64,000 nucleotides of DNA from a virus. The notes under the pieces are model-generated. The model ran no database searches. It saw only the letters and a program-made list of their open reading frames with translations, and was not told where the DNA came from. The DNA is taken from IMG/VR virus record IMGVR_UViG_3300002835_000050, positions 50,551 to 114,550 of that record, one strand, 5' to 3'. Of this stretch, positions 11,058 through 57,980 are shown one piece after another (the first letter of the stretch is position 1; every line of letters begins with the position of its first letter). The position numbers and the translations under genes are program-made.

Positions 11058-12387
11058 TTGTGTCTATTTGATTGTTATTTAATTCAGATTCGGAAATTTC
11101 AGAAACAGCTTCTGGTTCTAATACATCTGTGTCATCTTCTTCTTCCTCTTCTAAAGTTAATGAAACTTCTATGTCTTCATTATCTACTCCATAAAGTAAA
11201 TGTGACACTTCTTCCTCACTGGCAACTTCAAAATTGTCTTCAGTTGCAAACTCAGATTCTGGAATTTCTTCTGTTATGTCTTCAATAACTTCTTCAACAG
11301 TTAGAATTTCAGATACTGGGTTTACAAAATCTTCTTGTATTCCATAAGTATAGTTACTATTAAGTTCAGCTAAAAGATCTGGAACAACAGAAATAGTTTT
11401 TACTGTAAAGAATGTGCTATCTCCTCTATTCTGGATATCTTTAGATGCATAAGTCAATAAGATATCAAGATTATCAGAAGTAAGTTGGCCTTTATCTATT
11501 AAAGAGTTTACTACTTTATCAATGTCAGTATCAAGATAGTTTTTATCTTTACCTAAATAACTAATTAAAGACTTAAAGTTGACATGAGTCTTAGTCTTTG
11601 AGCTACTAATATTATAAGCATACTTATAAAACAATAACTCTAGATAAATAAGACTTTCTGTATATTTAGAATTAGCCATGATTTCCATAGCAAGAACATG
11701 ATTATCAGTATCAGAACTATCTAACATTTCAGAAAGATGATCAAACATTACTTTGTCAATCTCAGTAGCATCTTCACCATTCAATACATTAATTACAGAA
11801 GATTCATCTAGTATAGTTTTATCTTGTAAAAATTTGTAAAGCTCTTGATACTCTTCTTTGACAATCATTAAGTTTTCACTATAACCAAAAGTCTCATCTT
11901 TAATAATTGAGTGCTCACTGTTTATCATTTCTTTTAGATTATAATCAACAGCAATGAGGTCTTCAGTATAAAATTCAAGAGATGTTTCAACCTTTTCTAT
12001 ATCATACTCATCCATTTTTGGTTTAACCAATTCAAAAAATGCTAAAAACTCTTTAATAGGACATTTATACAACCAATTTGTACTAGTCATTTCATTAAGA
12101 CTTTTCTTTGAACCAAAAAATACAGTTGCTTGATTGAAGTCTCTTACATTTTTAACATTGTGTTCAACACATACATTTTTAAACTTTACTCTAGGTACAT
12201 TTACATTTGGTAAAAAGAAAATTTTATCTCCTTTAGTTGGTGTATAAGGTATTTTATTCAAAGATAACTCATCTGAAATATCTTGTCCAAAACCTCCTAC
12301 ATGTAATTTAATACTAAATGATACGGTACCAATTTCATTTACATAGTCATATCTTGAGATTCCAGACTTTATTTGTAATATATTCAT
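11029..12387 (-). CDS. Hypothetical protein downstream of MoxR; acidic tail; carries the shared MLxSxDxDN motif
   Basis: 452-aa ORF; motif at 11677-11760. Confidence 0.75.
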   Translation of the reverse strand: MNILQIKSGISRYDYVNEIGTVSFSIKLHVGGFGQDISDELSLNKIPYTPTKGDKIFFLPNVNVPRVKFKNVCVEHNVKNVRDFNQATVFFGSKKSLNEMTSTNWLYKCPIKEFLAFFELVKPKMDEYDIEKVETSLEFYTEDLIAVDYNLKEMINSEHSIIKDETFGYSENLMIVKEEYQELYKFLQDKTILDESSVINVLNGEDATEIDKVMFDHLSEMLDSSDTDNHVLAMEIMANSKYTESLIYLELLFYKYAYNISSSKTKTHVNFKSLISYLGKDKNYLDTDIDKVVNSLIDKGQLTSDNLDILLTYASKDIQNRGDSTFFTVKTISVVPDLLAELNSNYTYGIQEDFVNPVSEILTVEEVIEDITEEIPESEFATEDNFEVASEEEVSHLLYGVDNEDIEVSLTLEEEEEDDTDVLEPEAVSEISESELNNNQIDTNGTPDIDWF

Positions 12388-12398
12388 AATTAAAAATT

Positions 12399-12422
12399 AA
12401 AAAGGGGAGTTTTACCTCCCCT
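12399..12422 (-). terminator. Intrinsic terminator
   Basis: AGGGGAG/CTCCCCT stem plus T5 on the minus strand. Confidence 0.75.
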
Positions 12423-12432
12423 GTTAAACAAT

Positions 12433-13602
12433 TTATTGTACAGCCATTTTGACTACATTAGTATTCATCATCATTTTAGAGAACTTGTTTTTGTTTCCAT
12501 TAACAATCTCTTTGACCATATAATATCTTAAGTCATTTGTAAATGCATCACAGTCAGTAGTTAACTTAACTAATCTATTAATCATTGCATCCGGTACTGG
12601 TTTAGTATCAGCATAAGTCAATGAATAATTAATCAATCTGGTAGCAATAACACTAGAGATATCTGCTCTAAAGTCATCATCTTTACCTACTGCACCTGTT
12701 AAAGCTCCCATAACATAAGCTTCATCTTTTGTAAAGGTATCTTCCGGAGATATAATTCTATCTAATTTGTTATTAATAAACATAGTAAACATACTAGAGA
12801 AATCAACACCAACTGAACCTTCACCAATCATTTGGATTAACGGAAGATCATCTTCAAACTTAGGAATAGAACTAATACCATTAAAGAAAGTAGTCACAGA
12901 TCTTGGATTAACTCTTTGAGTTACAAGTTCTGGATTCATCAACATAAAGTTAATACATCTACCATCAATCTTAGCTTGTTCTGCCCATTTAGCCCATACA
13001 TTTACATCATACTTCAACTCAACAGAAATAAATCTTGTTTTCTGAGCTACATCTAGACTAGTAACATTATAGTCACCATTGTCTGGATTAGTAGTCAAGA
13101 TAACATGCCAGTTCTTTGGTAACTTCCAAGAAACATATTCTTGTCTATCTAATATTTCCATAGTTGCTTGCATAAAGCGGTGATCAGCTCTAGTATAATC
13201 ATCTAATACTAAGAAACCACCTTCACCTTTACCTTGAATCCATTCCGGAGCAGCATGAGACATGCGTTTATCTACAATCTTAAAGCCTGCTTTTTGAGCT
13301 GCTTGAATCTGTGCTTCATTAATCCATTTAGTTTGCCCTTCAGCATTCTGGATTTGAAATTCTTTTACAGGAAAACCTACTAAATCACCTAATTCTTCTA
13401 ACTGAGATAAATTAAGTTTTACTACTTGCATGTTTAACTCTTTACCCAACTGCATAATAGCTGAAGTCTTACCAAGACCAGCATCACCTTCAATATTAAT
13501 AGCCACAGGAACTTTTCCTTCAGTCTGGATATGTTGGTTATTCTTAACCATGTGTTTAATAAAACTTTTTAATTCTTCTACATTTAATTGAACTTGACTC
13601 AT
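12433..13602 (-). CDS. MoxR-like AAA+ ATPase
   Basis: Walker A GDAGLGKT, Walker B LVLDD, sensor-1 TTNP, Arg finger KTRF, sensor-2 NPRS; adjacent to a VWA gene. Confidence 0.85.
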   Translation of the reverse strand: MSQVQLNVEELKSFIKHMVKNNQHIQTEGKVPVAINIEGDAGLGKTSAIMQLGKELNMQVVKLNLSQLEELGDLVGFPVKEFQIQNAEGQTKWINEAQIQAAQKAGFKIVDKRMSHAAPEWIQGKGEGGFLVLDDYTRADHRFMQATMEILDRQEYVSWKLPKNWHVILTTNPDNGDYNVTSLDVAQKTRFISVELKYDVNVWAKWAEQAKIDGRCINFMLMNPELVTQRVNPRSVTTFFNGISSIPKFEDDLPLIQMIGEGSVGVDFSSMFTMFINNKLDRIISPEDTFTKDEAYVMGALTGAVGKDDDFRADISSVIATRLINYSLTYADTKPVPDAMINRLVKLTTDCDAFTNDLRYYMVKEIVNGNKNKFSKMMMNTNVVKMAVQ

Positions 13603-13613
13603 AATTCTTTTTT

Positions 13614-14927
13614 TTATAATTCTAACTTAATAACTTTACCCGGAAGATCATTATTCATTTCTGATCTTTCTGATATAACCCATAGGACATTACCTTTAGG
13701 TCTAACTGAAGCATCACATTCACCATCTGTAAAATATACTAGACTGGTAAACTCTCTCTGATGTTCATTATAATATTCTAAGACAGGATCAAATTGTGTT
13801 CCTCCTCTACCATGAACTTCAAGTTCATTCTTTCCTTTATAAGATTCAATACTACGGATACTAGTATCACACTGTATTATAGTAATATCTACTCCTGCTT
13901 TATAAATATGATGTATCTCAGACATAAACTCAGTCAATTCATCATTACTTACAGAACCTGAAGTATCAATAGCTAATAGCATGTGTTGTTTCATCTTTAT
14001 CTTAAGACCTGGATTGTCAGAGAATCTTCTATTCTCTTTTCTTCTAATCTTTTTAGTATAAACTTTTGAACTAACACCGGTAAATCTTCTGATATATCCG
14101 CGCCAATCAAATTTAGCTGCAGTAATTTCATCTAATTTAATAACACCATCAATCTCACCAGGTATAGTACCTCTTTTCTTTATAGTTTGATCTTTAGCAT
14201 CAGATAAAACTTTTTGCAATTGCTTTTCAATTAACTTTTGCTCAGCTTCAGTAAGATTCTCAAAGTCTTCCCATGTACTATGATCAGGCATTCCATCATT
14301 ATCTCCTTGATCCATTTGATCACATAGAGCATCAAAATTAGAATCACCTGAAGTACCAGTTTGATCTTTCTTATCCTTAGCTTCTCTTAGCTTATCATAA
14401 TAATAATTAGCACCTGCTTTAATATCTAGATTTAGATCAGCATAATCTTCTAACATTACACCTCTTGGCGGAAGTTTATCAGCAATTGCTTTTAGTTCCT
14501 CTAGTGTAGCATTATTTTCTTTAGCATATTCTAATTCAAGCTGTACAGCTGTTTTAAGAGCATTAAAACCATCAGCTGATAACTCGGCTCCTGGAAGCCA
14601 TGTTCTATCAATATACTGATTGATTTCCATATCCATAGCAATGTTTGCTAGTCTCTTATCTGAATACTTAAAGTATGTAGTAAGATGACCAAATGCAATA
14701 TGCAATAATTCATGTTTAAGTAGACCTAGTCTATGTTCTTCACTAAGACTCATCCAAAATGTTTCATTTATACATAACTGATAATTGATACCATTTTTAC
14801 TTACACCAGCTGTTGGGACTCTTTTGTCATCCCATAGCTTGTTTAACATAATGAGAAAGAACCCGTAATAGGGCTCTTTCAACATTAAATCTTTACATAT
14901 TTTACTAAGACTTTGTTGTTTAGTCAT
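13614..14927 (-). CDS. Metallopeptidase + VWA domain protein (DUF2201-like)
   Basis: HELLH zincin motif; MIDAS DTSGS, GGT, FTDG. Confidence 0.85.
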   Translation of the reverse strand: MTKQQSLSKICKDLMLKEPYYGFFLIMLNKLWDDKRVPTAGVSKNGINYQLCINETFWMSLSEEHRLGLLKHELLHIAFGHLTTYFKYSDKRLANIAMDMEINQYIDRTWLPGAELSADGFNALKTAVQLELEYAKENNATLEELKAIADKLPPRGVMLEDYADLNLDIKAGANYYYDKLREAKDKKDQTGTSGDSNFDALCDQMDQGDNDGMPDHSTWEDFENLTEAEQKLIEKQLQKVLSDAKDQTIKKRGTIPGEIDGVIKLDEITAAKFDWRGYIRRFTGVSSKVYTKKIRRKENRRFSDNPGLKIKMKQHMLLAIDTSGSVSNDELTEFMSEIHHIYKAGVDITIIQCDTSIRSIESYKGKNELEVHGRGGTQFDPVLEYYNEHQREFTSLVYFTDGECDASVRPKGNVLWVISERSEMNNDLPGKVIKLEL

Positions 14928-15330
14928 TTCCTTTTAGTTTAATGGAAACTTCAAATTTCTCAGCTGGATAACCCATCTGACCTAAGAAGCCAATCATATT
15001 TTCAGTAAACAATTCCATGAAAAGTTCAATAGATTGATTACTAGCTTTACCTTCTGTCATTGCTGATAGACAAGAACCAGTGCTTAACTCAGCACCTTCT
15101 TCTTTAGTAAATTTAGTTACAGCATTTCTAATTGCTATTTCACAAGTAGGACATGCTGTTTCCCATTCTTTTATAGATAACTTACCATATTTATATAATA
15201 CAATAAGTTCACCTAAATATTTTTCTGTGTCAACTCCTTTAAGAGCTTCAAATGCCACCACAGCATTTTCATTATCTGTAGAACGTAACATGTTCAACAG
15301 GTTCTTTGTTTCTTCTTTGCTAAAAATCAT
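14920..15330 (-). CDS. Hypothetical protein with N-terminal MLxSxDxEN motif
   Basis: ORF overlaps the start of the VWA gene. Confidence 0.7.
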   Translation of the reverse strand: MIFSKEETKNLLNMLRSTDNENAVVAFEALKGVDTEKYLGELIVLYKYGKLSIKEWETACPTCEIAIRNAVTKFTKEEGAELSTGSCLSAMTEGKASNQSIELFMELFTENMIGFLGQMGYPAEKFEVSIKLKGND

Positions 15331-15331
15331 A

Positions 15332-15454
15332 TCATTTAATATTTAAAAAGGTAATCAAATCTTGAACTTTTTCCATTATCTCATCTTTAAGTTCATCTGT
15401 AAGTGTTTGTAATTCTAAATTGTACAACCACTCATTAAATTCATCTTCTGTCAT
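15332..15454 (-). CDS. Small acidic protein (40 aa)
   Basis: MTEDEFNEWLYNLELQTLTDELKDEIMEKVQDLITFLNIK; TGATG coupling with the upstream gene. Confidence 0.6.
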   Translation of the reverse strand: MTEDEFNEWLYNLELQTLTDELKDEIMEKVQDLITFLNIK

Positions 15455-15795
15455 CAGTCTTCAATTTTAAGTGTTTTAATCATCCATTCTGTGGGTGTAT
15501 TAATATTATCCACCCATTCTTTTGCACTTGGAATATATCCATTGCAATCTTCTTTTACATGTTGTTCTCCAACATATCTTATGTAGACTCTTTTGCCTAC
15601 AGAATTTACAAAATAAGTACCAAAAGTTTTTTCACATTCAAATATACCCTCACTATGATGACGGAACATTCTATGTTTACTGTGACCAATCCAGGCCTTT
15701 GTAGCATCAAACCATTCATGAATATGCATATATTCTGATGGTTCACCACCCCATTTACGGGCACTGCTTCTACTATGATCATATGGGTGTGACAT
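15454..15795 (-). CDS. DUF6915-like His-rich protein
   Basis: HPYDHSRSSARKWGG...IHEWFD...HRMFRHHSEG...EQHVKED. Confidence 0.7.
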   Translation of the reverse strand: MSHPYDHSRSSARKWGGEPSEYMHIHEWFDATKAWIGHSKHRMFRHHSEGIFECEKTFGTYFVNSVGKRVYIRYVGEQHVKEDCNGYIPSAKEWVDNINTPTEWMIKTLKIED

Positions 15796-15796
15796 A

Positions 15797-16054
15797 TTAC
15801 AAATTTTTAAATTCTTTTTCTAGATCTAATATCTCCAAAGTAATACTGTCATATTCTTTTTTAATTAGATCATCTATACCTTCTTTATCATATAAAGACA
15901 CTTCATTTTTTCTAGAAAAAGATCCCGTTGAATAATTTACTACTGCTGATATAGAACAAGATTTTAGAGCATTTTCAAGTCCTCTCTGTCTAAATTTAAG
16001 AGTATTAATCTTTTCTTGTAATTCTTTAGCTTCTTTAAATTTTAATTCATCCAT
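15797..16054 (-). CDS. Hypothetical protein
   Basis: ORF in operon. Confidence 0.6.
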   Translation of the reverse strand: MDELKFKEAKELQEKINTLKFRQRGLENALKSCSISAVVNYSTGSFSRKNEVSLYDKEGIDDLIKKEYDSITLEILDLEKEFKNL

Positions 16055-16478
16055 TATAGTCTAAAGTTTGATTAATTAAATTACCAGCATGAGTATAGTG
16101 CTCTGTATTAGTAATATAAACTGAGTTATCAATTGTATATTTACCAGAAGGAACAAGAATAGACAACACACCATAACCTCCATCATTGTTCCACCAATCC
16201 TCAATATCACCAAGAATTTTATCATTGGCAAAATCTTCAATATCTGAATAAATTCCACTATCAAGATCACTTAAATTTGGAGCTGCGTCATGTCCATATG
16301 TAGGTAATTCTGAAATATAATCAAATGCTATTTCTTCATCTTTATCTAAAGTTTGAGTAGTATACATAATACTGTCAATACATCCTGAATCACCACCACC
16401 AGAATATTCTACTCTAATACCGGTCACACCACGGTCAGCCAACTGTAATAGAAGGCCTGTCATATCAATTTCTGTCAT
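16047..16478 (-). CDS. DUF6878-like acidic protein
   Basis: VEYSGGGDSGCID...DWWNNDGGYG. Confidence 0.65.
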   Translation of the reverse strand: MTEIDMTGLLLQLADRGVTGIRVEYSGGGDSGCIDSIMYTTQTLDKDEEIAFDYISELPTYGHDAAPNLSDLDSGIYSDIEDFANDKILGDIEDWWNNDGGYGVLSILVPSGKYTIDNSVYITNTEHYTHAGNLINQTLDYNG

Positions 16479-16690
16479 AATTTTGCTTTTTGTATAAAAT
16501 ATTTTGCTACTTCAGGAATGTGTTTCTTGTAATAAGGTTGATTATCCTTACACCAAGTTTTTACTTCCTCTTTACTCTTAAATGGCTTTTGCCAAGAGTT
16601 ATTATTCATAATCATATTAAATGTTGGTTCTAGCTCATCAATAAATGCTTGAACTGTCCAACCTTCCCTGATATGTCTGTCATTACTCAT
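16475..16690 (-). CDS. Hypothetical protein
   Basis: Likely start MSNDRHIREGW. Confidence 0.6.
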   Translation of the reverse strand: MSNDRHIREGWTVQAFIDELEPTFNMIMNNNSWQKPFKSKEEVKTWCKDNQPYYKKHIPEVAKYFIQKAKL

Positions 16691-16691
16691 A

Positions 16692-17117
16692 TTATTTTGT
16701 TTTAAAAAAGCGTCCCAAGATATTCCCATTAAGGAATCCTTCTTTTTCAAGCACTTCATATTTAAACTGGTGCTTTACTTCTTGATAAGTCAATTCCATT
16801 GCTGAGTAGCAAATCATTAGAATTTCCCTTTTAATTACAACACCTGCTTTGTGAGCATCTTTAAGAGTTTTATTACTACTATAGTATTTCATAAAGTCAG
16901 GTCTAAGTTCCCGGGTGTATTTCTTTAACCTCTTGTCAGTAGACATAGCCAAAGCTTTCTTACCCATAGGTTTTTTTATATTAGCAAAGAAGTTCTTCTT
17001 GCCAATGTATGCAACAGACTTACCATCAATGATAGCAGTCATAATGTAAATGAATCCAATACCTCCTTCTGGAATACAGGAATCATCAAACTCTTTACCT
17101 TTATATATCCAACTCAT
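16692..17117 (-). CDS. GIY-YIG family nuclease
   Basis: GFIY...YIGKK...YYSS...REIL...E...N. Confidence 0.75.
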   Translation of the reverse strand: MSWIYKGKEFDDSCIPEGGIGFIYIMTAIIDGKSVAYIGKKNFFANIKKPMGKKALAMSTDKRLKKYTRELRPDFMKYYSSNKTLKDAHKAGVVIKREILMICYSAMELTYQEVKHQFKYEVLEKEGFLNGNILGRFFKTK

Positions 17118-17389
17118 ACATATTTTATAGTTAAATGATAAACATCTATTCTTAATCTTAACTCCATGTTCTCTAACTCAAATATTGCAAGCTTTTTATT
17201 TAACTCTTCAACTTGTTCTTCAAGAAGTTCATTTTGTTCTCCAAGAGTTTCAATTTGATCTTTTAAATCACCAATTTCAGTATTTACATCTTCTAATTCT
17301 CTTTCAATTTTTTCTCTTAGATTATCAAATTCATATCTTGCAGAAGAGATATGATCTTCTAAATCATTCATTGATTTTTCTAAACTCAT
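17114..17389 (-). CDS. Coiled-coil hypothetical protein
   Basis: Heptad-rich acidic ORF. Confidence 0.6.
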   Translation of the reverse strand: MSLEKSMNDLEDHISSARYEFDNLREKIERELEDVNTEIGDLKDQIETLGEQNELLEEQVEELNKKLAIFELENMELRLRIDVYHLTIKYV

Positions 17390-18369
17390 AATGCTTGTTT
17401 TAATAGTGGAAATAATTTATCTCTTACAGCTTCAACACCATAGTCTTTTACAGAATCTGATAGATCTTTAGACATGTCAAGTACTACAAAGTTAAAACCA
17501 TACTTGTCTTTATATCTCTGAGCAGCTTTTATGCCAGGCTCATCATTATCAAACAGTACAATGATTTTATCATAGTGTGGTATTAGTTTACTCATTACAG
17601 ATTCTCCAATCATAGTATTTTCACTATCCGGAGCAATACATTCTACATTACTAATACCAAGCTTTCTAAAACACATAAGATCTTTAAGTGATGATGTAAT
17701 TACTAAGTACTTACAATTATACTGTAATTGATCTATTCCCTGAACATAATTTTGAACTTTAATAAACTTCTTATTTATATTCTTAGGCATGTAGATTTTA
17801 TACAGTTCACCATCATCTCTAAAATAACCATATAAGAAAGGTTTATTAAATGCAAATGAAGTCATAGAGCTATCTTCTTCTTTTTTCTCCATAGTAAAAT
17901 ATGCCAAAGGTGCCACATTATATGTTGTCAAAAGTGTAGAGCTAATCTTAAAGCTTGTCCAAAAAATAGAATCTAAGTTAGTCCAGTGTCTCATTTCATA
18001 ATCAACTACTTTGAACTTATCATGGAATTTAAACTCTGTTTTAGGTTGTACATTATGATTTAGAACATAGTCTTGATAATCATTTATTATTTTACTAACA
18101 GCATTTCCTCTTTCAGGTAAGTTAAACAATAACTTTACTAATTGTATGTTATCTCCCTGATAACCAGATGAAAAATCCTTAAACTTATAAATCATATTGT
18201 TACTATCCATGTAAATAAACATAGATGGTATCTTATCTTTAGAATTAAATGCAGAAAGTATTTTAATATCTTGACCTAAAAGTTTTTCCTTTAAGTTTAA
18301 ATAATATTCAAAAGGCCATTCTATAGGCACCTGAGAAAGTTTAGATATTATATTCTTAGTTGAAATCAT
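17386..18369 (-). CDS. DNA primase (TOPRIM)
   Basis: YKFKDFSSG, ITSSLKDLMC, APDSEN, LFDNDEPG; likely start MISTKN. Confidence 0.8.
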   Translation of the reverse strand: MISTKNIISKLSQVPIEWPFEYYLNLKEKLLGQDIKILSAFNSKDKIPSMFIYMDSNNMIYKFKDFSSGYQGDNIQLVKLLFNLPERGNAVSKIINDYQDYVLNHNVQPKTEFKFHDKFKVVDYEMRHWTNLDSIFWTSFKISSTLLTTYNVAPLAYFTMEKKEEDSSMTSFAFNKPFLYGYFRDDGELYKIYMPKNINKKFIKVQNYVQGIDQLQYNCKYLVITSSLKDLMCFRKLGISNVECIAPDSENTMIGESVMSKLIPHYDKIIVLFDNDEPGIKAAQRYKDKYGFNFVVLDMSKDLSDSVKDYGVEAVRDKLFPLLKQAL

Positions 18370-18384
18370 AATCAGATAATTAAA

Positions 18385-18422: not shown

Positions 18423-18430
18423 AATTAAAA

Positions 18431-25289: not shown

Positions 25290-25874
25290 CTATTTATTAA
25301 AAGTTGCTATAAATAATTCTTTAGATAACACAGTATGTGGGTAGTCCTTTACAATTTCACTAAGTCTTACACTTGCTGGACCTATACCCCATTCTCCATG
25401 TTCTTCTATTCTTTTCTTTCTCATATTAACTATAGAAAGATACACAAGGTTTAAATTATCAATATCTTTAGACTGCATCATGTTAGACATATTACGCGCT
25501 TCATCTTCAGTTATATAATCTAATACTTTCAGTAATTGGATCTCTGCTAATAAAATAAAAGGCCGGTAATCACCAGCCTTTGTACCATGATTATAGAGAT
25601 GCCATAAATAATGTAAATTTTGATCTACATCTTTAGTCATATAAAAATGTTCTTTAACAATTACATTAACTAAATGTTTAATCTCAGGAATTTTAATGTA
25701 AATATCTTTATATTCCATATATAATTCAAAATCTTCACTTTCTAAATATCTATAATAACCTTTTTTACAAAGCATAGCTGCCTGGTTTTCTGTATAACCA
25801 GGATACCATTTTGTTAAAAAAGTTTCTATAGGTCTATTTGATAAATGTCTTTTTACTCCATAATTAACTCCCAT
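25290..25874 (-). CDS. Hypothetical protein with MMxSxDxDN motif
   Basis: Motif at 25431-25514. Confidence 0.65.
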   Translation of the reverse strand: MGVNYGVKRHLSNRPIETFLTKWYPGYTENQAAMLCKKGYYRYLESEDFELYMEYKDIYIKIPEIKHLVNVIVKEHFYMTKDVDQNLHYLWHLYNHGTKAGDYRPFILLAEIQLLKVLDYITEDEARNMSNMMQSKDIDNLNLVYLSIVNMRKKRIEEHGEWGIGPASVRLSEIVKDYPHTVLSKELFIATFNK

Positions 25875-50214: not shown

Positions 50215-50218
50215 GAAC

Positions 50219-51937
50219 ATGAGTACATTTATACAAATAGCTGGGTCTAGTGCACCTAATAATTCTTGTATTACGGATACATCATTAATTGGTGCAGCAG
50301 GATTACAAACAAATGAGATTCAAAATGGTGACTATCTTTTATTTTGTGGATCAGGAAAATTTGGATGGACTAATGGAGGATGGGATGCTGTAGTAAATAC
50401 AGCTTTACCTGGTTTTGTTACTAATGTAAGAAATAGAAATTTAAATTCAGGAATTACTTTATCTGCAGATTTATTTCCTGGAGACATTATTAAATTTTCT
50501 GGTACAAGTTATATTAGTTATAGCGACCAACCTGTTGTTTTAACAAAGTTATCGGTTGGTTTAGTATTTGCAACTTGTGATAATATTAGAAATAATGATA
50601 GAGATATCCCATTATCTACTATTATTACTACACAAAACTTTGACTATACATATCCTACTAATAATCAAACTGGGTATTTATGTTTTTTAATAGAACATAC
50701 TGTAACTCAAACTTTTTTAGCAGGGGAAACAGTTTTTTATGCTGTGTTTGGTTGTGATAATAAATCTGAAACTTTAGTGACACCAAGTGTTAGTTTTTCA
50801 TTAGGTACTGTAAGAAATTGCGGTGAAGTAGATTTAACTCCAAATATGGAATTACAATTATGTTGTGATCCATCAATTGTTGATATTGTATATGATACAA
50901 CATTAACAGTAGGAGATTTTTTTGTAGATAATGAAGGAAACTGTTGGGAAGCTCAAGCTAAAACAGGAGCACAAGTAACTAGTGTAAGAACAGTAACTAC
51001 AAAGTATACCTCTTGTGAAGAATGTATTAGCTTTAATGAATGCCCTGATAATATAATAGTTGAATCATGTTGTTTTATGGGAGCTGAAACATTTACAGCT
51101 TCTTTACCTGGTGTTTCAGTAGGAGATGTTTTTGTTGATACATATGGTTTCTGTTGGGCAGCTATTGATGAAACTTCTGGTCCTATTACAGGTATGGTTA
51201 TGATTGATACAAATTATGGTCCGGAAGCATGTGAAGATTGTTTAAATATAAATGCATGTCCTGAAATTATTAAATTAATACCATGTTGTGAATATATAGG
51301 AGGAACAGAAATATTAACTACGGCTGCATTATTTGGTTATACACCAGTAGAGGGAGAACTTGTTTCAGATACATTTGGTAATTGTTATACAGTACGGTTA
51401 GGTTATACTGGTAGTATTTCAGCACCGTTCATTGAATTTGGAACTAGTTATGGAGAACCCGATGAACCATGTATACCTTGTATAGAGGTTAATGCTTGCG
51501 GTCAACCATTATATTATAATGTTATTAATTGTTGTACAGGTGATACAGAAGTTATAGTAATTGATACTTTAATAGCACCAGAAACTGTAATAATAATAAC
51601 TACTACTACTTCTCCACTTTTTCCACAATGTTGGAAAGTTGTAAGTTTTAGTAATACAGGAACAGCAACAATAATATTAGATACATTTATCAAAGATGCA
51701 AAGGACTGTAATGATTGTGTTAAGGAACATGGTTGCATTACTTATTATGAAGTAGCAGACTGTTGTGATATTGTTCCAAATGGAGTAATGTTATTACCTG
51801 ATAATCTTGATTTAACACTTGTATACCGTGATGATACTGGAACATGTTGGTCAATTGTAGGACCTACAGTAGGACCCGCTACAGTTGTATGGAATGGTAA
51901 TAATAGAGAATCATGTAGTGAGTGTGGTTGTGGTTAA
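50219..51937 (+). CDS. Cys-rich repeat protein (five about 70-aa CC...C[WY]...CxxC...C units)
   Basis: Repeats visible from about 50846 to the C-terminus. Confidence 0.75.
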   Translation: MSTFIQIAGSSAPNNSCITDTSLIGAAGLQTNEIQNGDYLLFCGSGKFGWTNGGWDAVVNTALPGFVTNVRNRNLNSGITLSADLFPGDIIKFSGTSYISYSDQPVVLTKLSVGLVFATCDNIRNNDRDIPLSTIITTQNFDYTYPTNNQTGYLCFLIEHTVTQTFLAGETVFYAVFGCDNKSETLVTPSVSFSLGTVRNCGEVDLTPNMELQLCCDPSIVDIVYDTTLTVGDFFVDNEGNCWEAQAKTGAQVTSVRTVTTKYTSCEECISFNECPDNIIVESCCFMGAETFTASLPGVSVGDVFVDTYGFCWAAIDETSGPITGMVMIDTNYGPEACEDCLNINACPEIIKLIPCCEYIGGTEILTTAALFGYTPVEGELVSDTFGNCYTVRLGYTGSISAPFIEFGTSYGEPDEPCIPCIEVNACGQPLYYNVINCCTGDTEVIVIDTLIAPETVIIITTTTSPLFPQCWKVVSFSNTGTATIILDTFIKDAKDCNDCVKEHGCITYYEVADCCDIVPNGVMLLPDNLDLTLVYRDDTGTCWSIVGPTVGPATVVWNGNNRESCSECGCG

Positions 51938-52427
51938 AAAAGAAAACATATCTATAATATTAACTCTTTGTTTAGGGGTAATGTGTTTTGTCTTATTAAT
52001 AAGAGATCCAAAACAAGTATACCCTATATCTACTCAAAAAACAATTGAGAAAAGAATAGAAGGTAAGGAGACTATTATTAAAGAGAAAGGTAAGGTTATT
52101 GATAATAGTAAACTTATTATTAATGAACTTAACCATGGGTTGCATGACTTACAGTCTCAACTAGATGCTGTTAAAAATTCCAGAGATACTTTTAGTATAG
52201 TACAGATCCAGGATACAATGATTCATACTCTATACCGTAGAGATAAAGAAAAAGACTTGATTATATCAAGTCAAGACACTATAATCACTGCACAACGCTA
52301 TATAATCAATTCTAAGGACACTATCATATCATCCTTAACACTAGACATAAAAAAAATAAAAAGACAACGGAACTGGTCTTATATCCTTAATGGGATATTA
52401 GCCGGTGCATTAATATTAAAGCCATGA
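51930..52427 (+). CDS. Membrane-anchored coiled-coil protein (spanin-like)
   Basis: N-terminal TM, coiled coil, C-terminal hydrophobic tail; likely GTG start. Confidence 0.5.
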   Translation: MVKKENISIILTLCLGVMCFVLLIRDPKQVYPISTQKTIEKRIEGKETIIKEKGKVIDNSKLIINELNHGLHDLQSQLDAVKNSRDTFSIVQIQDTMIHTLYRRDKEKDLIISSQDTIITAQRYIINSKDTIISSLTLDIKKIKRQRNWSYILNGILAGALILKP

Positions 52428-52690
52428 CATACGGAGAATTAATTCAAGCAGGTCTGATTACTGCATTAGCTGTAATAGGCTATTTTTTAAGAATGGTCCA
52501 TACGGACGTTAGAAAAACAGTAGAAGATATGGGTAAATTAAAAGGTAAAGTAGAACTTGTAGAACAAGAAGCAAGATTAAAATACCAAGCAATACAAGAA
52601 CAAACTCAATTAGAACTTAAAATGCTTGCAAGAAATGTAAGTGATTTATCTACTGCAGTTAAAGAGTTAATGTTAAAATTACATAATTAA
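52424..52690 (+). CDS. Holin-like membrane protein
   Basis: One TM plus coiled coil. Confidence 0.5.
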   Translation: MTYGELIQAGLITALAVIGYFLRMVHTDVRKTVEDMGKLKGKVELVEQEARLKYQAIQEQTQLELKMLARNVSDLSTAVKELMLKLHN

Positions 52691-52691
52691 T

Positions 52692-52898
52692 ATGGATACA
52701 ACATCAGTAGCAAACGGTGCACAGGACTTTGGTGTATTTGCACAGTTAGGAAATTATGGTCCTGCGGGATTAGCAGTTTTAGCTTTAGGATATGTTGCAT
52801 GGATCTTTATTAAAAGACATCTTGCTGAGAAAGATAGACTTAAAGAAGAGTTAATTAAAACAGCTAAAAAGAAAACAAGAACAACTAAAAGTAAATAG
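52692..52898 (+). CDS. Holin-like membrane protein
   Basis: FGVFAQLGNYG..GLAVLALGYVAWIF; paralog of the next gene. Confidence 0.5.
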   Translation: MDTTSVANGAQDFGVFAQLGNYGPAGLAVLALGYVAWIFIKRHLAEKDRLKEELIKTAKKKTRTTKSK

Positions 52899-52900
52899 TC

Positions 52901-53146
52901 ATGTCATTTGGAATATTTGAAAGTTTAACTCAATATGGTATCTTAGGTTTTGCAGTCTTAGGATTAGGTTATTTGTGCTGGATTTTTCTTAATAGACTTA
53001 TGAAGAGTGAGGATGATTATAGATCAAGAGTTGAAGAGTTAGAAGGTGAGTACAGAGAAGACTTAGAAAAAAAGTTAGAAGAAAGTACAGAACATTCTAA
53101 GAGTTTAAAGGAAACAGTTTTGACATTGTTTGGTAAGAAGAAATGA
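52901..53146 (+). CDS. Holin-like membrane protein
   Basis: FGIFESLTQYG..GFAVLGLGYLCWIF. Confidence 0.5.
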   Translation: MSFGIFESLTQYGILGFAVLGLGYLCWIFLNRLMKSEDDYRSRVEELEGEYREDLEKKLEESTEHSKSLKETVLTLFGKKK

Positions 53147-53532
53147 AAAAGAATAAAAGAATCATATTAGGTTCTGCTATTGGATTCATAGCACTTATTT
53201 GTTTTCAAGTATTTTCAACTGGTCATGGTCATGTTGTAGTAGTTGAAAAGAATGAAGTACTTACTACTGCAAATCAGACACTTACAAAACAAAACGGAAG
53301 TTTAAAAAAAAGTGTTAATTCATTAAAGGCTAAGAATGAAGCACTTGTGGAAGATAAAGCTAATTTAGAGTCTATGGTTTCAGAAGTTATTGGAAGTTTA
53401 GATAGCACTAATGCAGTTGTAAAAGATATTAAAAAAGAATTGTCAGATGAAAAAGCTATTAATATTAAGCAGTCTACTGGTGAGCAGTTTGATTTTCAGC
53501 CAATCAAACTACCCGCTTCAGACGGTAATTAA
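53143..53532 (+). CDS. Membrane-anchored coiled-coil protein (i-spanin-like)
   Basis: Basic N-terminus, TM, coiled coil. Confidence 0.5.
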   Translation: MKKNKRIILGSAIGFIALICFQVFSTGHGHVVVVEKNEVLTTANQTLTKQNGSLKKSVNSLKAKNEALVEDKANLESMVSEVIGSLDSTNAVVKDIKKELSDEKAINIKQSTGEQFDFQPIKLPASDGN

Positions 53533-54004
53533 AGGTGACTCAGTTGTTATTCTTACAAAAGCACAAGCAAAGAATATCAATGACATATTTGAAAGCCAGA
53601 AAGCTAAGATAGCTGCCTTTAAAATTGAGGTAGCTAGTAAAGATAGTTTACTTGCTATTAAAGATACATTACTAATTCAGAAGACAGAACTTATAGAAAC
53701 ATTTACCTATAACTTAGAATTAGCAAAAAGATTAGATTTATTAGAGCATTGGTTACTAAATGCTGCAATAAACAACACATGGTTATATTATTCATGGAAA
53801 GATACTTTAGTATATTCTGTAGATTTAAGTCAACATTATGTTAGAAAGGATGATCATACAGGAGACATATTTTTTTATAGATATGATGAACCTGTAAATA
53901 CAGAAGAAGACCAGGAAGAACCACATAAGTATTGGTATACAGATATTATTAAACCTAAGAGACCTAAAGTAACATTAGCTCCCTTATTAAATTATAAACA
54001 ATGA
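53447..54004 (+). CDS. Secreted protein overlapping the previous gene (spanin partner?)
   Basis: Signal peptide ending FS-Q; 86-nt overlap. Confidence 0.5.
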   Translation: MKKLLILSSLLVSSLIFSQSNYPLQTVIKGDSVVILTKAQAKNINDIFESQKAKIAAFKIEVASKDSLLAIKDTLLIQKTELIETFTYNLELAKRLDLLEHWLLNAAINNTWLYYSWKDTLVYSVDLSQHYVRKDDHTGDIFFYRYDEPVNTEEDQEEPHKYWYTDIIKPKRPKVTLAPLLNYKQ

Positions 54005-54276
54005 AAAAGTTTTTTAGAGAATTAATTAGTGACAATAACAATATTAATGAACAAGCATTTGTAGGAGTTATCTCTTTCTTTGCTATGGTCTTTGTATTAT
54101 TGGTAGATGTAGTAACAGGAATGTTAAGTAAAGAATTGATTATCAAGGAGTTTATCTTTGATGGATTTATGATTCTTACACTTGGTGCATTTGGTATTAC
54201 AACAGCAGGTAGAATTATGTCATTAAAGAAAAAAGCTGAAAACAAAGAAGAAACTTCAGAAGAAGTAGTAGATTAA
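54001..54276 (+). CDS. Two-TM holin-like protein
   Basis: Two TMs and a charged tail, directly upstream of the endolysin. Confidence 0.6.
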   Translation: MKKFFRELISDNNNINEQAFVGVISFFAMVFVLLVDVVTGMLSKELIIKEFIFDGFMILTLGAFGITTAGRIMSLKKKAENKEETSEEVVD

Positions 54277-54293
54277 CAATAAAAATAAACAAG

Positions 54294-54773
54294 ATGCAAT
54301 TAAGTAAGAATTTAGCACTAGCAGAAGTAACAAGAAGTGAAACTGCAAAAAGAAAAGGAATTAGCAACATGCCAACTCCAGAACACATTGAGAACTTTAA
54401 AAAGTTAGCTGAGAATGTGTTTCAACCAATTAGAGAACACTTTGGAGTTCCTATTCATTTGAGCTCTGGGTACAGAAGCAAAGCCTTGAATACTGCGGTA
54501 GGGGGGAGTTTGTCCAGCCAACATTGTACAGGTGAAGCAATTGATATTGACATGGATGGAACATCAATTACTAATAAGCAAGTTTTTGATTTCATTAAGC
54601 AACATGTAAATTTTGATCAAATGATTGCTGAGTTCCCTGTAAATGGAAACCCAGCTTGGGTACACGTATCTTACGAATCAACTGGCAAACAAAGAAAACA
54701 AATATTGGTTGCTAAGAAAGTTGGATCAGCAACTAAATATATACCATATAAAACAGATGCAGATTTAAAATAA
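54294..54773 (+). CDS. Endolysin, peptidase M15A family
   Basis: SSGYRS..LN..VGG...SQH..GEAID...WVHVS. Confidence 0.9.
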   Translation: MQLSKNLALAEVTRSETAKRKGISNMPTPEHIENFKKLAENVFQPIREHFGVPIHLSSGYRSKALNTAVGGSLSSQHCTGEAIDIDMDGTSITNKQVFDFIKQHVNFDQMIAEFPVNGNPAWVHVSYESTGKQRKQILVAKKVGSATKYIPYKTDADLK

Positions 54774-55417
54774 TGGCTTACTTGTATAGACATATCAGAT
54801 TAGATAAGAATGAACCTTTTTACATTGGTATTGGAAAAAGTGAATCAGATTATAATAGAGCATACTTTAAATCTAGCAGAAATACATATTGGAAAAATAT
54901 TGTAAATAAAACTGAATATAGAGTAGAAATATTATTAGATGATTTATCTTGGGAAGAAGCTTGTGAAAAAGAAAAAGAATTTATTAAACTGTATGTTAAG
55001 AATACACAAGGAGGACTATTATGTAATATTGCAGATGGTGGAAATGGGGGATATCTTGGTAAAGAGATAAATCTTAAAAGAAAAAAATCATTAATGGGTC
55101 ACCCGGTTAGTGAAAAAACTAAAGAAAAAATTAGATTTAAAGCTATTGGTAGAAAACCTTCTAATGAGACTAAAGAAAAAATGTCTTTAACTCATAAAAA
55201 AAATAAAACTGGTCATTGGTTAGAAAGTAAAGGGCATAAAAATGGTAAAGCATTTAAAGTGTTTCAGTACTCACTTGATGGTATTTTTATTAAAGAATGG
55301 GCTTGTGCAAAATATGCAATAGATTACTATAACTTAAATAAAACTGCAATAACAGATTGTCTGAAAGAAAGACAAAAATCTGCAGGTGGTTTTATTTGGT
55401 CAAACATTTTAAAATAA
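54773..55417 (+). CDS. GIY-YIG homing endonuclease with NUMOD3/NUMOD1 motifs
   Basis: YLYRH...FYIGIG; SEKTKEKI/SNETKEKMS; VFQYSLDG.FIKEW...SAGGFIW. Confidence 0.85.
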   Translation: MAYLYRHIRLDKNEPFYIGIGKSESDYNRAYFKSSRNTYWKNIVNKTEYRVEILLDDLSWEEACEKEKEFIKLYVKNTQGGLLCNIADGGNGGYLGKEINLKRKKSLMGHPVSEKTKEKIRFKAIGRKPSNETKEKMSLTHKKNKTGHWLESKGHKNGKAFKVFQYSLDGIFIKEWACAKYAIDYYNLNKTAITDCLKERQKSAGGFIWSNILK

Positions 55418-55422
55418 AAAAT

Positions 55423-55581
55423 ATGAAATTCAGAAACAGTTGGAAATCAGTAAATAAACAGTGGGATAAAGTATCAATTAGATTGAGAATATCTTCATTG
55501 GATATTTTAACTATAGAAGTAGACATATCTAGAGAATTCTATATGTTTACTTTATTTAACTTAACAATAAAAAATAGATAA
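55423..55581 (+). CDS. Small hypothetical protein
   Basis: Likely start MKFRNSWK. Confidence 0.55.
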   Translation: MKFRNSWKSVNKQWDKVSIRLRISSLDILTIEVDISREFYMFTLFNLTIKNR

Positions 55582-55583
55582 TT

Positions 55584-55934
55584 ATGAAAAAAGCAATGGG
55601 ATTAAGAGGGGCTACTGACGCAATGGATTATTGTAAATCAATGAATAGCAAAGTAGGTAGCATGCTTGAAGGTAGAAAATTTGCTGAAGGAGGTGCAACA
55701 GAAAGTTGTGGACCTGGGGATGGTGGATGTAAATCATCTAAAGCTGCTAGAAAAAATAGAAGACGCGAAGCATGGCACAACTTTAAAGAAGGTGTTGATA
55801 AAGTTAAGGGTCCTATTATAGGTGCGGGTCTTGCAACAGCTGCACTTATAGCTAATAAAAAAGGTCTTTTTGGAAAAGAAGCTAAAGAAGCATTAGGTAT
55901 GAAAAAAGGTGGTTCAGTAAAGAAGAAAAAGTAG
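55584..55934 (+). CDS. Basic protein with xxxGG motifs (possible internal virion protein)
   Basis: KFAEGG, MKKGG; Lys-rich; one hydrophobic segment. Confidence 0.55.
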   Translation: MKKAMGLRGATDAMDYCKSMNSKVGSMLEGRKFAEGGATESCGPGDGGCKSSKAARKNRRREAWHNFKEGVDKVKGPIIGAGLATAALIANKKGLFGKEAKEALGMKKGGSVKKKK

Positions 55935-55957
55935 AATAAATTATCATATATTCTCAG

Positions 55958-55987
55958 ATCCAGGTATTTAGGTATCTGGATTTTTTT
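55958..55987 (+). terminator. Intrinsic terminator
   Basis: ATCCAGGTA/TATCTGGAT plus T-run; TATATTTG follows at 56019-56026. Confidence 0.8.
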
Positions 55988-56048
55988 ATTTAAATGTTTT
56001 ATGTTTAAACTTTTTTAGTATATTTGCTTAAACTTAAAAAGTATAAAA

Positions 56049-56351
56049 ATGGAAAACAATAACCAACAAGAAGAGTTAGAGCAGTTAACTCCAGAGCAAT
56101 TAGCACAAAGAAAGGAAGAAATGAAAGCTTATTTTGATGAGGCTATTCCTTACTTAGAATCACAAGTTAAGTATGAAAAACTTCTTATGGACATAGCTGA
56201 ATCTAAGTTCAAAAAGTTTCAATGGGATACTCAGTTATCTATGGCTATGTATCAAATGCAACACCCAGAAGAACTTGAAACTGAGGAAAGATATGAAACA
56301 GAAGCTGCAGCACAAGAAGATCCTAAAAAAAGAAAACTTAGAAAAGAGTAA
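56049..56351 (+). CDS. Conserved hypothetical protein
   Basis: First ORF of the packaging operon. Confidence 0.65.
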   Translation: MENNNQQEELEQLTPEQLAQRKEEMKAYFDEAIPYLESQVKYEKLLMDIAESKFKKFQWDTQLSMAMYQMQHPEELETEERYETEAAAQEDPKKRKLRKE

Positions 56352-56353
56352 TC

Positions 56354-56731
56354 ATGGCTTTAGTAAATCAAGTTCAGAAAAAGGTTAAGATGCCTAAATG
56401 GGATGTAGTAAAATTCCAAATACTTACACATTGCTTTGTAAATAGAATTGCAATGAGTGAGTCAGACTTGAATTGCTTAACATTATTAAGTTTCAATCAA
56501 CCTATTGAGCTTACACATTTTTGTTATGATGCTTCTTCAGAAGAAGAGTGGATATTTAAATCACCTCAGACTGTTAGAAATTGTATTAATAAAGCTGAAA
56601 AAAATAATTTGGTGGTTAAGGATAGTGAAAATAAAAAAGTCATTATGCTTAACCCCAATTTAAAAATTCAAACTGAAGGTACAATTCTATTAGATTATAA
56701 ATTTTTAGGTCATGAATCCCAAGAAGGCTAA
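56354..56731 (+). CDS. Putative winged-helix protein
   Basis: IFKSPQTVRNCINKAEKNNLV. Confidence 0.55.
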   Translation: MALVNQVQKKVKMPKWDVVKFQILTHCFVNRIAMSESDLNCLTLLSFNQPIELTHFCYDASSEEEWIFKSPQTVRNCINKAEKNNLVVKDSENKKVIMLNPNLKIQTEGTILLDYKFLGHESQEG

Positions 56732-57116
56732 TAAACTTTATAAAGAAGTAGCAGAAGAACTTGATGTATCTGATACACTAGTAGAAGAAACAATAGGTTT
56801 TTATTATAACCATATAAGACAAATGTTAAGTGGTTTAACAGACCCTAGAATAAATGTAGAAGGTCTTGGACATTTTGTAGTGAAAGCTAAAATGGTTAAG
56901 TCAGCTATTCCAAGATATACTAAATCATTAGATAATCATGATACATCTACATTTGCAGCTTATTTTAATAAGAAAGGTATAGAAACAAAACTAGAACTAC
57001 TTATTGAATTAGAGAAAAAGATTATTAAACAGGAAGAAAGAAAAGAAACTTTTAAAAAACTTAAGTATGGCAATAACACTGAAAACAATTTGGAAGGAGA
57101 GACACAAGATAGTTGA
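56712..57116 (+). CDS. HU/IHF-like DNA-binding protein
   Basis: LYKEVAEEL.VS...VEE....Y...INVEGLGHFVVK. Confidence 0.7.
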   Translation: MNPKKANKLYKEVAEELDVSDTLVEETIGFYYNHIRQMLSGLTDPRINVEGLGHFVVKAKMVKSAIPRYTKSLDNHDTSTFAAYFNKKGIETKLELLIELEKKIIKQEERKETFKKLKYGNNTENNLEGETQDS

Positions 57117-57366
57117 AGGTATTAAGAACTCAATTATTAGAGATCAGTTTGTTGAAGAAGTAGCTGCAATGAGACATAGTATTTGTGATGAATGTCCAAG
57201 TAAAGGAAAGAAATGTGTAATGAAAGGCACAGCTCCATGCTGCAATGAATGTGGATGTTCTCTTGGATTTAAGACTAGATCTCTTGCTTCTGACTGTCCA
57301 TTAGGTAAATGGGAAGCTTTGCTTACAGAAGAAGAAGAAGATGCATTAGATAACCTTGAAAACTAA
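57067..57366 (+). CDS. Zinc-binding protein
   Basis: R..ICDECP...CNECGC....KTR.....CPLGKW. Confidence 0.7.
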   Translation: MAITLKTIWKERHKIVEGIKNSIIRDQFVEEVAAMRHSICDECPSKGKKCVMKGTAPCCNECGCSLGFKTRSLASDCPLGKWEALLTEEEEDALDNLEN

Positions 57367-57370
57367 GATT

Positions 57371-57715
57371 ATGGCAAGTTTATCAAATATACAAGGAATA
57401 GTAGTTAATGATCCTACTAAAGTCATTCATGGTCCATCCAATAATACTATTCAAACTGGTCAGGGTTTATGGAGCCAAATACAACAAGGTTCAAAAGGTC
57501 ATTATAATACTGCTATTGATTCTTTTGAAACTGAAATATGGAGATTACAGAAACAATTAGATGATCAAGCTTTAACTATCAAATTAATGAGACTTAAAAT
57601 TCTCGGTATTGAAGGCAAGTTTACACAGGAAGAAATGAGTAATATTAAAAAGATGCTTATGTCAGAAGATGAAGCATCTAGAACATTAGCTGATTCAATT
57701 ATAGAAAATGCTTAA
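57371..57715 (+). CDS. Hypothetical protein with C-terminal MLxSxD motif
   Basis: Motif at 57620-57703. Confidence 0.65.
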   Translation: MASLSNIQGIVVNDPTKVIHGPSNNTIQTGQGLWSQIQQGSKGHYNTAIDSFETEIWRLQKQLDDQALTIKLMRLKILGIEGKFTQEEMSNIKKMLMSEDEASRTLADSIIENA

Positions 57716-57980
57716 TACAGTAGAAGAAATATTTGGAAACATGCATGATATGCAGGAAAGAACTGTACACATGTATACTGGTGCTTATGGTATGGAAATG
57801 GTTTCTCATGCAATGGCTGTAAATAATGCTACTGGTTATTTAGAGTGGGCTATGGAAAGCAACAAAGTTGATAAACAAACTGGAGAAAGATTAATAGAAA
57901 TGTTAAACTCTCCAGATCATGATAATTTTAACCTGGCTTTATTAGCCATAGAACAAATGACAAATGAGCATAATATTTAG
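57708..57980 (+). CDS. Hypothetical protein with C-terminal MLxSxDxDN motif
   Basis: Motif at 57867-57950. Confidence 0.65.
   Translation: MLNTVEEIFGNMHDMQERTVHMYTGAYGMEMVSHAMAVNNATGYLEWAMESNKVDKQTGERLIEMLNSPDHDNFNLALLAIEQMTNEHNI

Follow-up and report, generated by a model that had tools for sequence, protein, structure and literature searches.

MoxR-type ATPases encoded next to a VWA-peptidase are widespread in phages (N4-like, jumbo and crAss-like), and for none of these pairs is a client or a function known. The corresponding proteins of N4, of other Schitoviridae and of further phages are gp24, the ATPase, and gp25, the VWA protein (DUF2201), whose genes are located in the early/replication region in the order ATPase, then VWA. 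MoxR/VWA machines of the CbbQ/CbbO and Rea1 type grip a carboxylate of their client through the MIDAS site (PMC4660213), whereas the small, non-enzymatic helical modules called effector-associated domains (EADs), which in the cellular MoxR-vWA ternary conflict systems occupy an N- or C-terminal position in a number of different proteins per genome, some adjoining the MoxR-vWA pair and others located elsewhere, have been proposed to couple proteins via homotypic contacts (Kaur, Burroughs, Iyer, Aravind 2020, PMC7159879). As to structure, the terms of reference are the ARM and HEAT solenoids (importin-alpha, beta-catenin and adaptins; Pfam Arm PF00514 and HEAT_2 PF13646), whose unit of ~30–45 residues consists of a helix, a short turn and a second helix.

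The DNA analysed here, referred to as the window, is a stretch of 64,000 nucleotides belonging to the 114.5-kb genome of an uncultured marine crAss-like phage, and contains a VWA–MoxR pair homologous to that of N4 with the two genes in the reverse order. The VWA-peptidase gene (13614..14927, minus strand) encodes an N4 gp25-like protein in which an HExxH metallopeptidase domain (DUF2201_N) is joined to a VWA-like domain (DUF2201) having a full MIDAS (DTSGS, GGTQF, FTDGE); it is followed by the gene of the MoxR-like AAA+ ATPase (AAA_5; 12433..13602, minus strand; Walker A GLGKT, Walker B LDD). The pair thus resembles the CbbQ/CbbO and Rea1 machines in having a MoxR ATPase beside a VWA protein with intact MIDAS but differs from them in the additional HExxH peptidase domain.

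The initial annotation had noticed that a gapless motif of 28 residues is common to five proteins encoded in the window, two of which are products of the genes flanking the VWA–MoxR pair, and this flanking position is confirmed. Gene A (14920..15330, minus strand; 136 aa) carries the motif at residues 3–30 (nt 15241–15324), its stop overlapping the start of the VWA gene by 8 nt, while gene B (11029..12387, minus strand; 452 aa; motif at nt 11677–11760) follows the MoxR gene. The B product comprises a BRCT-like region (residues ~49–204, nt 11776–12243), an ARM-like domain (residues 208–325, nt 11413–11766) that is homologous to A and has the motif as its first hairpin, and a disordered acidic tail (nt 11032–11295) ending in DIDWF; the end of gene B overlaps the start of a PD-(D/E)XK exonuclease gene (10050..11057, minus strand). 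Gene C (25290..25874, minus strand; 194 aa; residues 121–148, nt 25431–25514) belongs to a block of small genes. The other two carriers are on the plus strand, where the end of gene D (57356..57715; 119 aa; motif at nt 57620–57703, at the extreme C-terminus) overlaps the start of gene E (57708..57980; 90 aa; residues 54–81, nt 57867–57950), and E in turn shares its end with the beginning of the second PD-(D/E)XK nuclease gene (57964..58800, plus strand), downstream of which are a gene for a 171-aa protein, the large terminase gene and the portal gene. Pfam and PHROG searches with A to E detected no enzymatic domain; in B there is only the BRCT-like region. The module is portable, as had been proposed: it stands at the N-terminus of A, inside B and C and at the C-terminus of D and E.

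The five quoted segments, three on the minus and two on the plus strand, are exact translations of the DNA, each lying inside a single long open reading frame, and the M, S and D residues are indeed invariant across the five carriers. That the resemblance could be due to chance or convergence, or reflect a DNA-level repeat instead of a protein feature, might be suspected from a pairwise identity of only 7–12 of 28 residues and from the outcome of a leave-one-out test in which an HMM built from the segments ranked A, B, C and E at the top (E 4e-6 to 8e-4) but missed D (E 0.8). However, translation in six frames contains the pattern M[LM].S.D five times, whereas shuffled sequence is expected to contain it 0.33 times and had three copies at most in 500 trials. 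Moreover, a profile built from A orthologues only recovered the other four carriers (E, D, C and B, with E-values of 2e-8 to 1e-6) as the next best among 453 open frames, with nothing else below E 1. A second A profile, made with orthologues gathered by full-length search and excluding the A protein of the window itself, ranked B, C, E and D from second to fifth both in the window and across all 114.5 kb of the genome (E 6e-5 to 0.016, the following match being at 0.15). No sixth copy of the motif was found in the whole 114.5-kb genome. Furthermore, identity at third codon positions is 10–15 of 28, approximately the chance level for a genome of 31% GC, so that no DNA-level element is involved, and the motif is kept in orthologues down to 46% identity. 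The resemblance far exceeds chance, and an explanation by coincidence or by repeated DNA, strongly disfavoured by the single-family profile searches, appears extremely improbable.

The carriers had been described as otherwise unrelated, a premise that holds for C, D and E, which share only the hairpin, and fails for A and B, which are paralogues with a common domain of ~115 residues and seven helices. Profile–profile comparison of A with B gives 98% over 112 columns and hhalign 95% (E 3.9e-8, 108 columns). The helices of the AF2 model of A (5–16, 20–30, 39–48, 53–59, 61–74, 84–93 and 98–118) match in pattern those of B after subtraction of 207 from its numbering (5–16, 20–31, 39–54, 57–60, 62–70, 82–91 and 97–114). 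Deprived of the hairpin, A and B align in the same register, though not significantly (E 0.013, probability 3%), so that homology of the whole domain rests on the full profile comparison and on the matching helix pattern. A, a stand-alone, all-helical, seven-helix ARM-like domain, would then be the central domain of B in free-standing form, the hairpin corresponding to the first two helices. The remaining comparisons extend over ~31–34 columns (A–C 96.7%, A–E 96.1%, A–D 95.1% and C–E 94.7%), and C, D, E and further small proteins of related phages would have in common the ~30-residue hairpin alone, mostly near the C-terminus. At the profile level the sequences indicate that the five families are homologous, and the hairpin probably has one origin in all of them.

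The HEAT/ARM-like helix-turn-helix shape attributed to the motif is reproduced in two independent AlphaFold models. In that of A (pLDDT 87) the predicted helices at residues 5–16 and 20–30 are separated by the turn S17-T18-D19; in that of B, whose pLDDT is above 90 across residues 210–330, helices 212–223 and 227–238 are separated by residues 224–226. In both, the turn amounts to three residues (S-x-D), five further helices follow and the hairpin is packed within a confident globular domain. In sequence terms the motif would thus mark a single small alpha-alpha hairpin, armadillo/HEAT in type, that consists of a Gly, a first helix opening with a T/D-x-E-E cap, the tight turn and a second helix. 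Of the invariant residues, S would cap the C-terminal end of helix 1 and D the N-terminal end of helix 2, with M pointing toward the hydrophobic core, while the near-invariant N would occupy position N3 of helix 2. An EF-hand, in which a twelve-residue Ca-binding loop (D-x-D/N-x-D-G...E) joins two helices, is rejected, since the turn has three residues in both models as opposed to a nine-residue loop, and position 1 is occupied by S instead of D; the sole lead in that direction was CDPK3 at E 0.24.

The predicted structures of A and B have the helix, short turn and helix of an ARM/HEAT unit, and with that unit the phage hairpin shares the Gly, the two helices and the tight S/D-rich turn between them; its pattern L-x-x-[LM]-L-x-S-x-D-x-E...A...L/I-x-N resembles the H2–H3 portion of the ARM consensus. 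Almost all structural neighbours found for B residues 205–295 are ARM/HEAT solenoids (UNC-45, AP-2/AP-3, COPI, SARM1 ARM, beta-catenin, Kap60 and a designed armadillo protein among them), with Z of 5–6.4 and rmsd of 2.3–2.8 Å, and the list obtained for A is similar, although the Z-scores of both are under the level at which helical matches are trustworthy and too low to prove kinship. In a language-model feature search HEAT_2 accounted for 16 of the 30 nearest named clusters. On the other hand, no match was found by Foldseek with the models (E<=0.001), by the Pfam models Arm, HEAT, HEAT_2 and HEAT_PBS with the five proteins (E<=0.1) or with 25 motif segments (E<=10), or by a PDB sequence search. 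Moreover, a tandem array, typical of the solenoids, is absent from the proteins of the window, each having one signature unit, while two units ~100 residues apart are present in P0151 and P0177.

A refuting outcome named in the initial annotation was an HMM of the motif matching generic HEAT segments. Instead, a search of 1.84e9 proteins with the profile gave 298 matches at E<=1e-3, and of the top 150 nearly all are members of the five families or small phage proteins (40–120 aa). Judging from these searches, the motif is confined to a clade of uncultured marine crAss-like phages and is not a generic HEAT element; the module constitutes a protein family of ~300 representatives absent from both Pfam and PHROGs. 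A relative with a complete genome of 122.8 kb, in which A has no more than 46% identity, retains all five carriers. The N-terminus of the A orthologues, the end bearing the motif, is their most conserved part, and in orthologue alignments of A, B and D no other stretch, or hardly any, is better conserved than the motif, its apparent conservation being inflated in families B to E, whose alignments were collected using the motif profile. In a more distant contig the hairpin is all that is recognisable in the positional orthologue of E, yet the order E, nuclease, 171-aa gene and TerL is retained.

Taken together, these data make it reasonably likely that the motif is a clade-specific hairpin of the ARM/HEAT type, of common origin in the five families and serving in protein–protein interaction, the last attribute being the one that we infer. 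As a candidate protein-binding element, apparently peculiar to this lineage, it may allow A and B to work with the co-transcribed and probably co-translated products of their neighbours, namely the VWA-peptidase, MoxR and the PD-(D/E)XK nuclease, all of which, with A and B, would be placed in a replication/recombination block, whereas E may work with the second nuclease, whose gene it adjoins. Nevertheless, the needs of the fold suffice to explain every residue that is invariant across families (C-cap for S, N-cap for D, N3 for N, core for M), so that the data do not demand a common binding function. An ancestral hairpin could have been duplicated and its residues kept for the sake of the tight turn, in proteins whose partners and functions are unrelated, a purely structural role with which the packing of the hairpin in the confident domains of A and B agrees, as does the fact that the surface positions conserved inside single families differ (K5, E7, T8 and N10 in A; H230, E235, I236 and N239 in B; EDEASRTLA in D). 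This rather unlikely alternative accounts less well for the acidic residue two positions after D and the E-E opening helix 1, which are also largely common across families, and for the C-terminal hairpin being the best or only conserved part of D, of E and of many proteins of 75–120 aa, which would be unusual for a scaffold.

More specific partners can also be envisaged. The hairpin may be a tag through which the five carriers, as adaptors or clients, dock with the VWA-peptidase/MoxR machine or are recognised by it as substrates, the invariant Asp at the exposed tip of the hairpin being, in a concrete version of this idea, the carboxylate that completes the VWA MIDAS metal site. The order A–VWA–MoxR–B–nuclease is fixed in all 32 related loci with enough sequence, A adjoining the VWA gene in 62 of 65 loci; the VWA protein retains its MIDAS residues (DTSGS, T and D) together with the peptidase motif; what is invariant in the motif is the acidic S-x-D-x-[DE] turn, which offers an Asp. 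Precedents exist in the CbbQO adaptor, which binds one specific surface carboxylate of Rubisco (PMC4660213), and in the EADs, small helical coupling domains published as occurring both next to and away from MoxR-vWA systems (PMC7159879), to which the five carriers, with two flanking the VWA–MoxR pair, may be likened. On the other hand, the phage system is viral and the EAD systems are cellular, the phage carriers are devoid of recognised effector enzymes, of EAD Pfam matches and of a VMAP or iSTAND third component, and the hairpin is never fused to a core component: the VWA and MoxR frames have no motif match, and no fusion of A with VWA, MoxR or another domain was found, which is weak evidence. 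By position, C, D and E are unconnected with the pair, and the Asp is equally required as helix N-cap. As to the co-occurrence of motif and MoxR/VWA across phages, the motif (E<=1) and A- or B-like genes are lacking in seven of seven other phages with homologous ATPase–VWA pairs (N4, XC38, BpSp, S-TIM5, Vibrio 1.026.O, PA26 and RHEph22), whereas the same motif search succeeded in five of five clade relatives; within the clade all is syntenic, and co-occurrence therefore carries no information. A docking tag of this sort we regard as unlikely, and decidedly unlikely its most elaborate form, a virus-encoded, EAD-like coupling tag inserting its S-x-D-x-[DE] tip into the VWA MIDAS so that MoxR/VWA remodels or cleaves the tagged A to E. 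Alternatively, the hairpin or the ARM-like domain could recruit or regulate the PD-(D/E)XK recombination nucleases, considering that B and E each overlap such a gene, that B and its nuclease are adjacent in 32 of 32 loci, that the E-like hairpin gene keeps its nuclease, 171-aa and TerL neighbours even in the distant contig, and that B has a BRCT-like region as well as an acidic, SSB-like tail with an aromatic final residue. But close paralogy of the two nucleases is not borne out by BLASTP (E 0.47), A, C and D adjoin no nuclease and adjacency alone is weak evidence, making this very unlikely.

Should the hairpin, contrary to the preferred interpretation as an interaction piece, be structural only, it would be an ordinary lineage-specific helical module; were the coupling-tag reading true, proteins of replication/recombination and of the packaging side would be tied to one ATP-driven machine. 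The hairpin family is found in an abundant group of marine crAss-like phages, in which the annotation of several "hypothetical" genes per genome would improve, and for the phage MoxR/VWA-peptidase pairs the clade supplies a short list of candidate partners, comprising the paralogues A and B, locked to the pair, and three further hairpin proteins.

The initial annotation had described a gapless 28-residue motif with invariant M, S and D in five otherwise unrelated proteins and had seen in it a portable docking or oligomerisation tag, perhaps one marking adaptors or substrates for the MoxR/VWA machine. The motif itself is confirmed: the five segments translate exactly into the text reported, two from the plus and three from the minus strand, each within a long ORF. 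The carriers are A (14920-15330(-), 136 aa, motif at residues 3-30), B (11029-12387(-), 452 aa, residues 210-237), C (25290-25874(-), 194 aa, residues 121-148), D (57356-57715(+), 119 aa, C-terminal motif) and E (57708-57980(+), 90 aa, residues 54-81). Any two segments share only 7-12 of their 28 residues; the core regular expression is found five times versus 0.33 expected. Leave-one-out HMMs built from the five segments recovered A, B, C and E and missed D, and single-family orthologue profiles ranked the other four carriers next-best among 453 six-frame ORFs, well separated from the rest; the exception is the D-only profile, which recovers A alone (E 0.014). With the A-family profile, gathered by full-length search and leaving out the window's own sequence, B, C, E and D take ranks 2-5 both in the window and in the whole genome, in which no sixth copy of the motif was found. 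A DNA-level repeat is ruled out since synonymous sites display no conservation, and the signal therefore resides at the protein level. The match among the five segments is not due to chance.

The window is the final 64 kb of a single viral contig of 114,550 bp (31% G+C), whose large terminase and portal are of crAss type. The closest GenBank matches are Crassvirales and Flavobacterium/Bacteroides phages, at ~25% identity, and proteins homologous to the carriers were obtained from marine metagenomes (JGI, ENA, Tara) and from contigs measuring 85-125 kb, which identifies the source as an uncultured marine crAss-like phage. No cultured relative emerged when A and B were compared by tblastn with 50,697 phage records, and the motif profile found no match in the crAss-like or Flavobacterium phages phi14:2, FPSV-S29 and cr130_1.

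Within the group the motif is retained in the orthologues of every carrier across 80 related IMG/VR loci, and the same five carriers are present in a complete relative of 122.8 kb, with just 46% identity in the A protein. In A, B and D no stretch, or hardly any, is better conserved than the motif, a ranking to be read with the caveat that the alignments of B to E were collected using the motif profile. A 25-sequence profile run against 1.84 billion representative proteins yielded 298 matches at E<=1e-3; with the motif masked, the best 150 of these sort into the five distinct families and a few other small clusters, the remainder being single proteins of 40-120 aa in which the hairpin mostly sits close to the C-terminus. 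The sole outsider among these 150, the 1973-aa repeat protein P0131, is a spurious match involving profile positions 18-30 only, across many repeats. This composition rules out a generic HEAT or helix-capping segment and shows the motif to be a clade-restricted module occurring in at least eight sequence contexts. None of the entries of Pfam, PHROG or the PDB sequences describes the motif, and for two of three small hairpin proteins of more distant phages no viral contig was traced. Two matched proteins carry the hairpin twice, namely the metagenomic P0151 (200 aa) and P0177 (150 aa), whose copies lie ~100 residues apart and which are otherwise dissimilar to families A-E.

In the AlphaFold models of both A (pLDDT 87) and B (pLDDT above 90 at residues 210-330) a first helix is followed by a three-residue turn and a second helix. 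As read from the secondary-structure strings of these models, the invariant S would directly follow helix 1 and the D directly precede helix 2, of which N would be the third residue, M being placed on the hydrophobic face; in many carriers a Gly and a T/D-x-E-E cap precede helix 1. An EF-hand, for which CDPK3 (E 0.24) was the only lead, is ruled out by the turn of three residues in place of a nine-residue loop and by S rather than D at position 1; a STAM1 match to helix 1 (E 0.024 over 17 residues) was set aside. Fold searches with B 205-295 and A 1-90 return ARM/HEAT solenoids almost without exception, at Z 4.2-6.4, below the reliability bar; a Foldseek search gave no significant match, and in a language-model feature search HEAT_2 accounted for 16 of the 30 nearest named clusters. 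These weak leads agree in suggesting an ARM/HEAT-type unit, and none of them proves superfamily membership.

The description of the carriers as otherwise unrelated does not hold for A and B, whose family profiles align over 108-112 columns with 95-98% probability, A 1-114 corresponding to B 208-320. In the two models, which are independent of each other, all seven helices coincide once shifted by 207 residues; with the hairpin removed the remainder keeps the same register, at a level not significant by itself. From the profile alignment and the matching helices it is concluded that A reproduces the central domain of B as a free-standing protein. Families C, D and E have no more than ~31-34 columns in common with A, at 95-97% probability.

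Outside this domain, the N-terminal region of B gives weak BRCT fold matches (Z 5.1-5.9) and its family conserves the segment GDKxYFLPGVNxPRxKLKDL...VRD..AT.IF, whose portion up to KLKDL resembles the BRCT consensus. The protein terminates in a long acidic tail, disordered and conserved family-wide, with (D/E)F(D/E)WF at its end; it is reminiscent of the tails through which SSB and T7 gp2.5 bind partner proteins. B may serve as a hub of replication and recombination. The A family frequently displays C-x-x-C at residues 60-63, with C87 and W56 nearly invariant; A may bear a redox or metal site. A few homologues of A carry the JGI label of a TusA-like sulfurtransferase, which lacks Pfam support and probably stems from a C-P-x-C stretch, and the likeness of the C-terminal half of A to Swi5-Sfr1 is not significant (E 0.18).

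On the minus strand the genes follow in the order DUF6878, an 85-aa gene, DUF6915, A, the HExxH+VWA protein (13614-14927(-)), MoxR (12433-13602(-)), B and a PD-(D/E)XK exonuclease (10050-11057(-)); A overlaps the start of VWA and B that of the nuclease. The whole block lies in a replication/recombination region with a DnaB-like helicase, a Toprim primase, an AAA_24 protein and UDG, where a SegE-like GIY-YIG homing endonuclease gene (16692-17117(-)) is also located; another gene so labelled by PHROG (54773-55417(+)) adjoins the endolysin gene. Block order is identical in all 32 loci with enough sequence, and in a second locus set A adjoins VWA in 62 of 65. The DUF6915 and DUF6878 genes (15454-16478(-)) always lie upstream of A in the related loci (32/32), so that the conserved block exceeds the four genes discussed. 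The VWA protein retains a full MIDAS and the HExxH motif, and the Walker B of MoxR is LDD, not DE. In the related contig L071 (10393-12003) the VWA-peptidase gene matches as two segments, residues 1-99 and residues 100-437, with ~310 nt between them, which could be an insertion, intron or small mobile element. At the other locus the end of D runs into the start of E, and the end of E into that of a second PD-(D/E)XK nuclease gene (57964-58800(+)), after which come a 171-aa gene, TerL and the portal. E (block 57708-58800(+); L187:2001-3075) always directly precedes the nuclease, the 171-aa gene and TerL, and in the more distant contig L187 the gene at its position keeps the hairpin only, the downstream order being unchanged. 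Close paralogy of the two nucleases is unsupported by their comparison.

That the hairpin is a common docking tag for MoxR/VWA, a proposal for which gene order is the argument, appears unlikely. Two precedents speak for it: MoxR/VWA adaptors grip one client carboxylate via the MIDAS site (PMC4660213) and repeated small helical coupling domains, the EADs, have been described around MoxR-vWA systems (PMC7159879). However, EADs are defined by fusion of one copy to a core component and of others to effector enzymes, and the hairpin, when examined, displayed neither feature. VWA and MoxR themselves are devoid of the motif, and a search for A fused to another domain gave nothing, a weak argument. 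Furthermore, the residues invariant across families are all explicable by the capping and the core of a tight hairpin, and the surface residues that each family conserves vary from one family to the next, which speaks against a single, identical binding surface.

The homologous VWA is of the N4 gp25 type, found in 347 GenBank phage records; seven genomes with ATPase-VWA pairs contain no motif at E<=1, whereas the same search found it in 5/5 clade relatives, and the motif is therefore no general companion of phage MoxR/VWA pairs. The gene order itself differs, VWA-peptidase preceding MoxR in this phage (12433-14927(-)) and ATPase preceding VWA in N4, XC38, BpSp, S-TIM5, PA26, RHEph22 and others (7/7). 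Co-occurrence within the clade is uninformative because synteny is fixed. A search aimed at VWA relatives of intermediate distance gave 80 loci, all at least 67% identical, and so covered the clade only. A purely structural role of the hairpin is a minor possibility, and a link to the nucleases that follow B and E a smaller one. In the best reading, the hairpin is a lineage-specific ARM/HEAT-like module of common origin, which A and B share in a form expanded to a full domain and which probably mediates contacts with the proteins encoded by the genes to which it is coupled.
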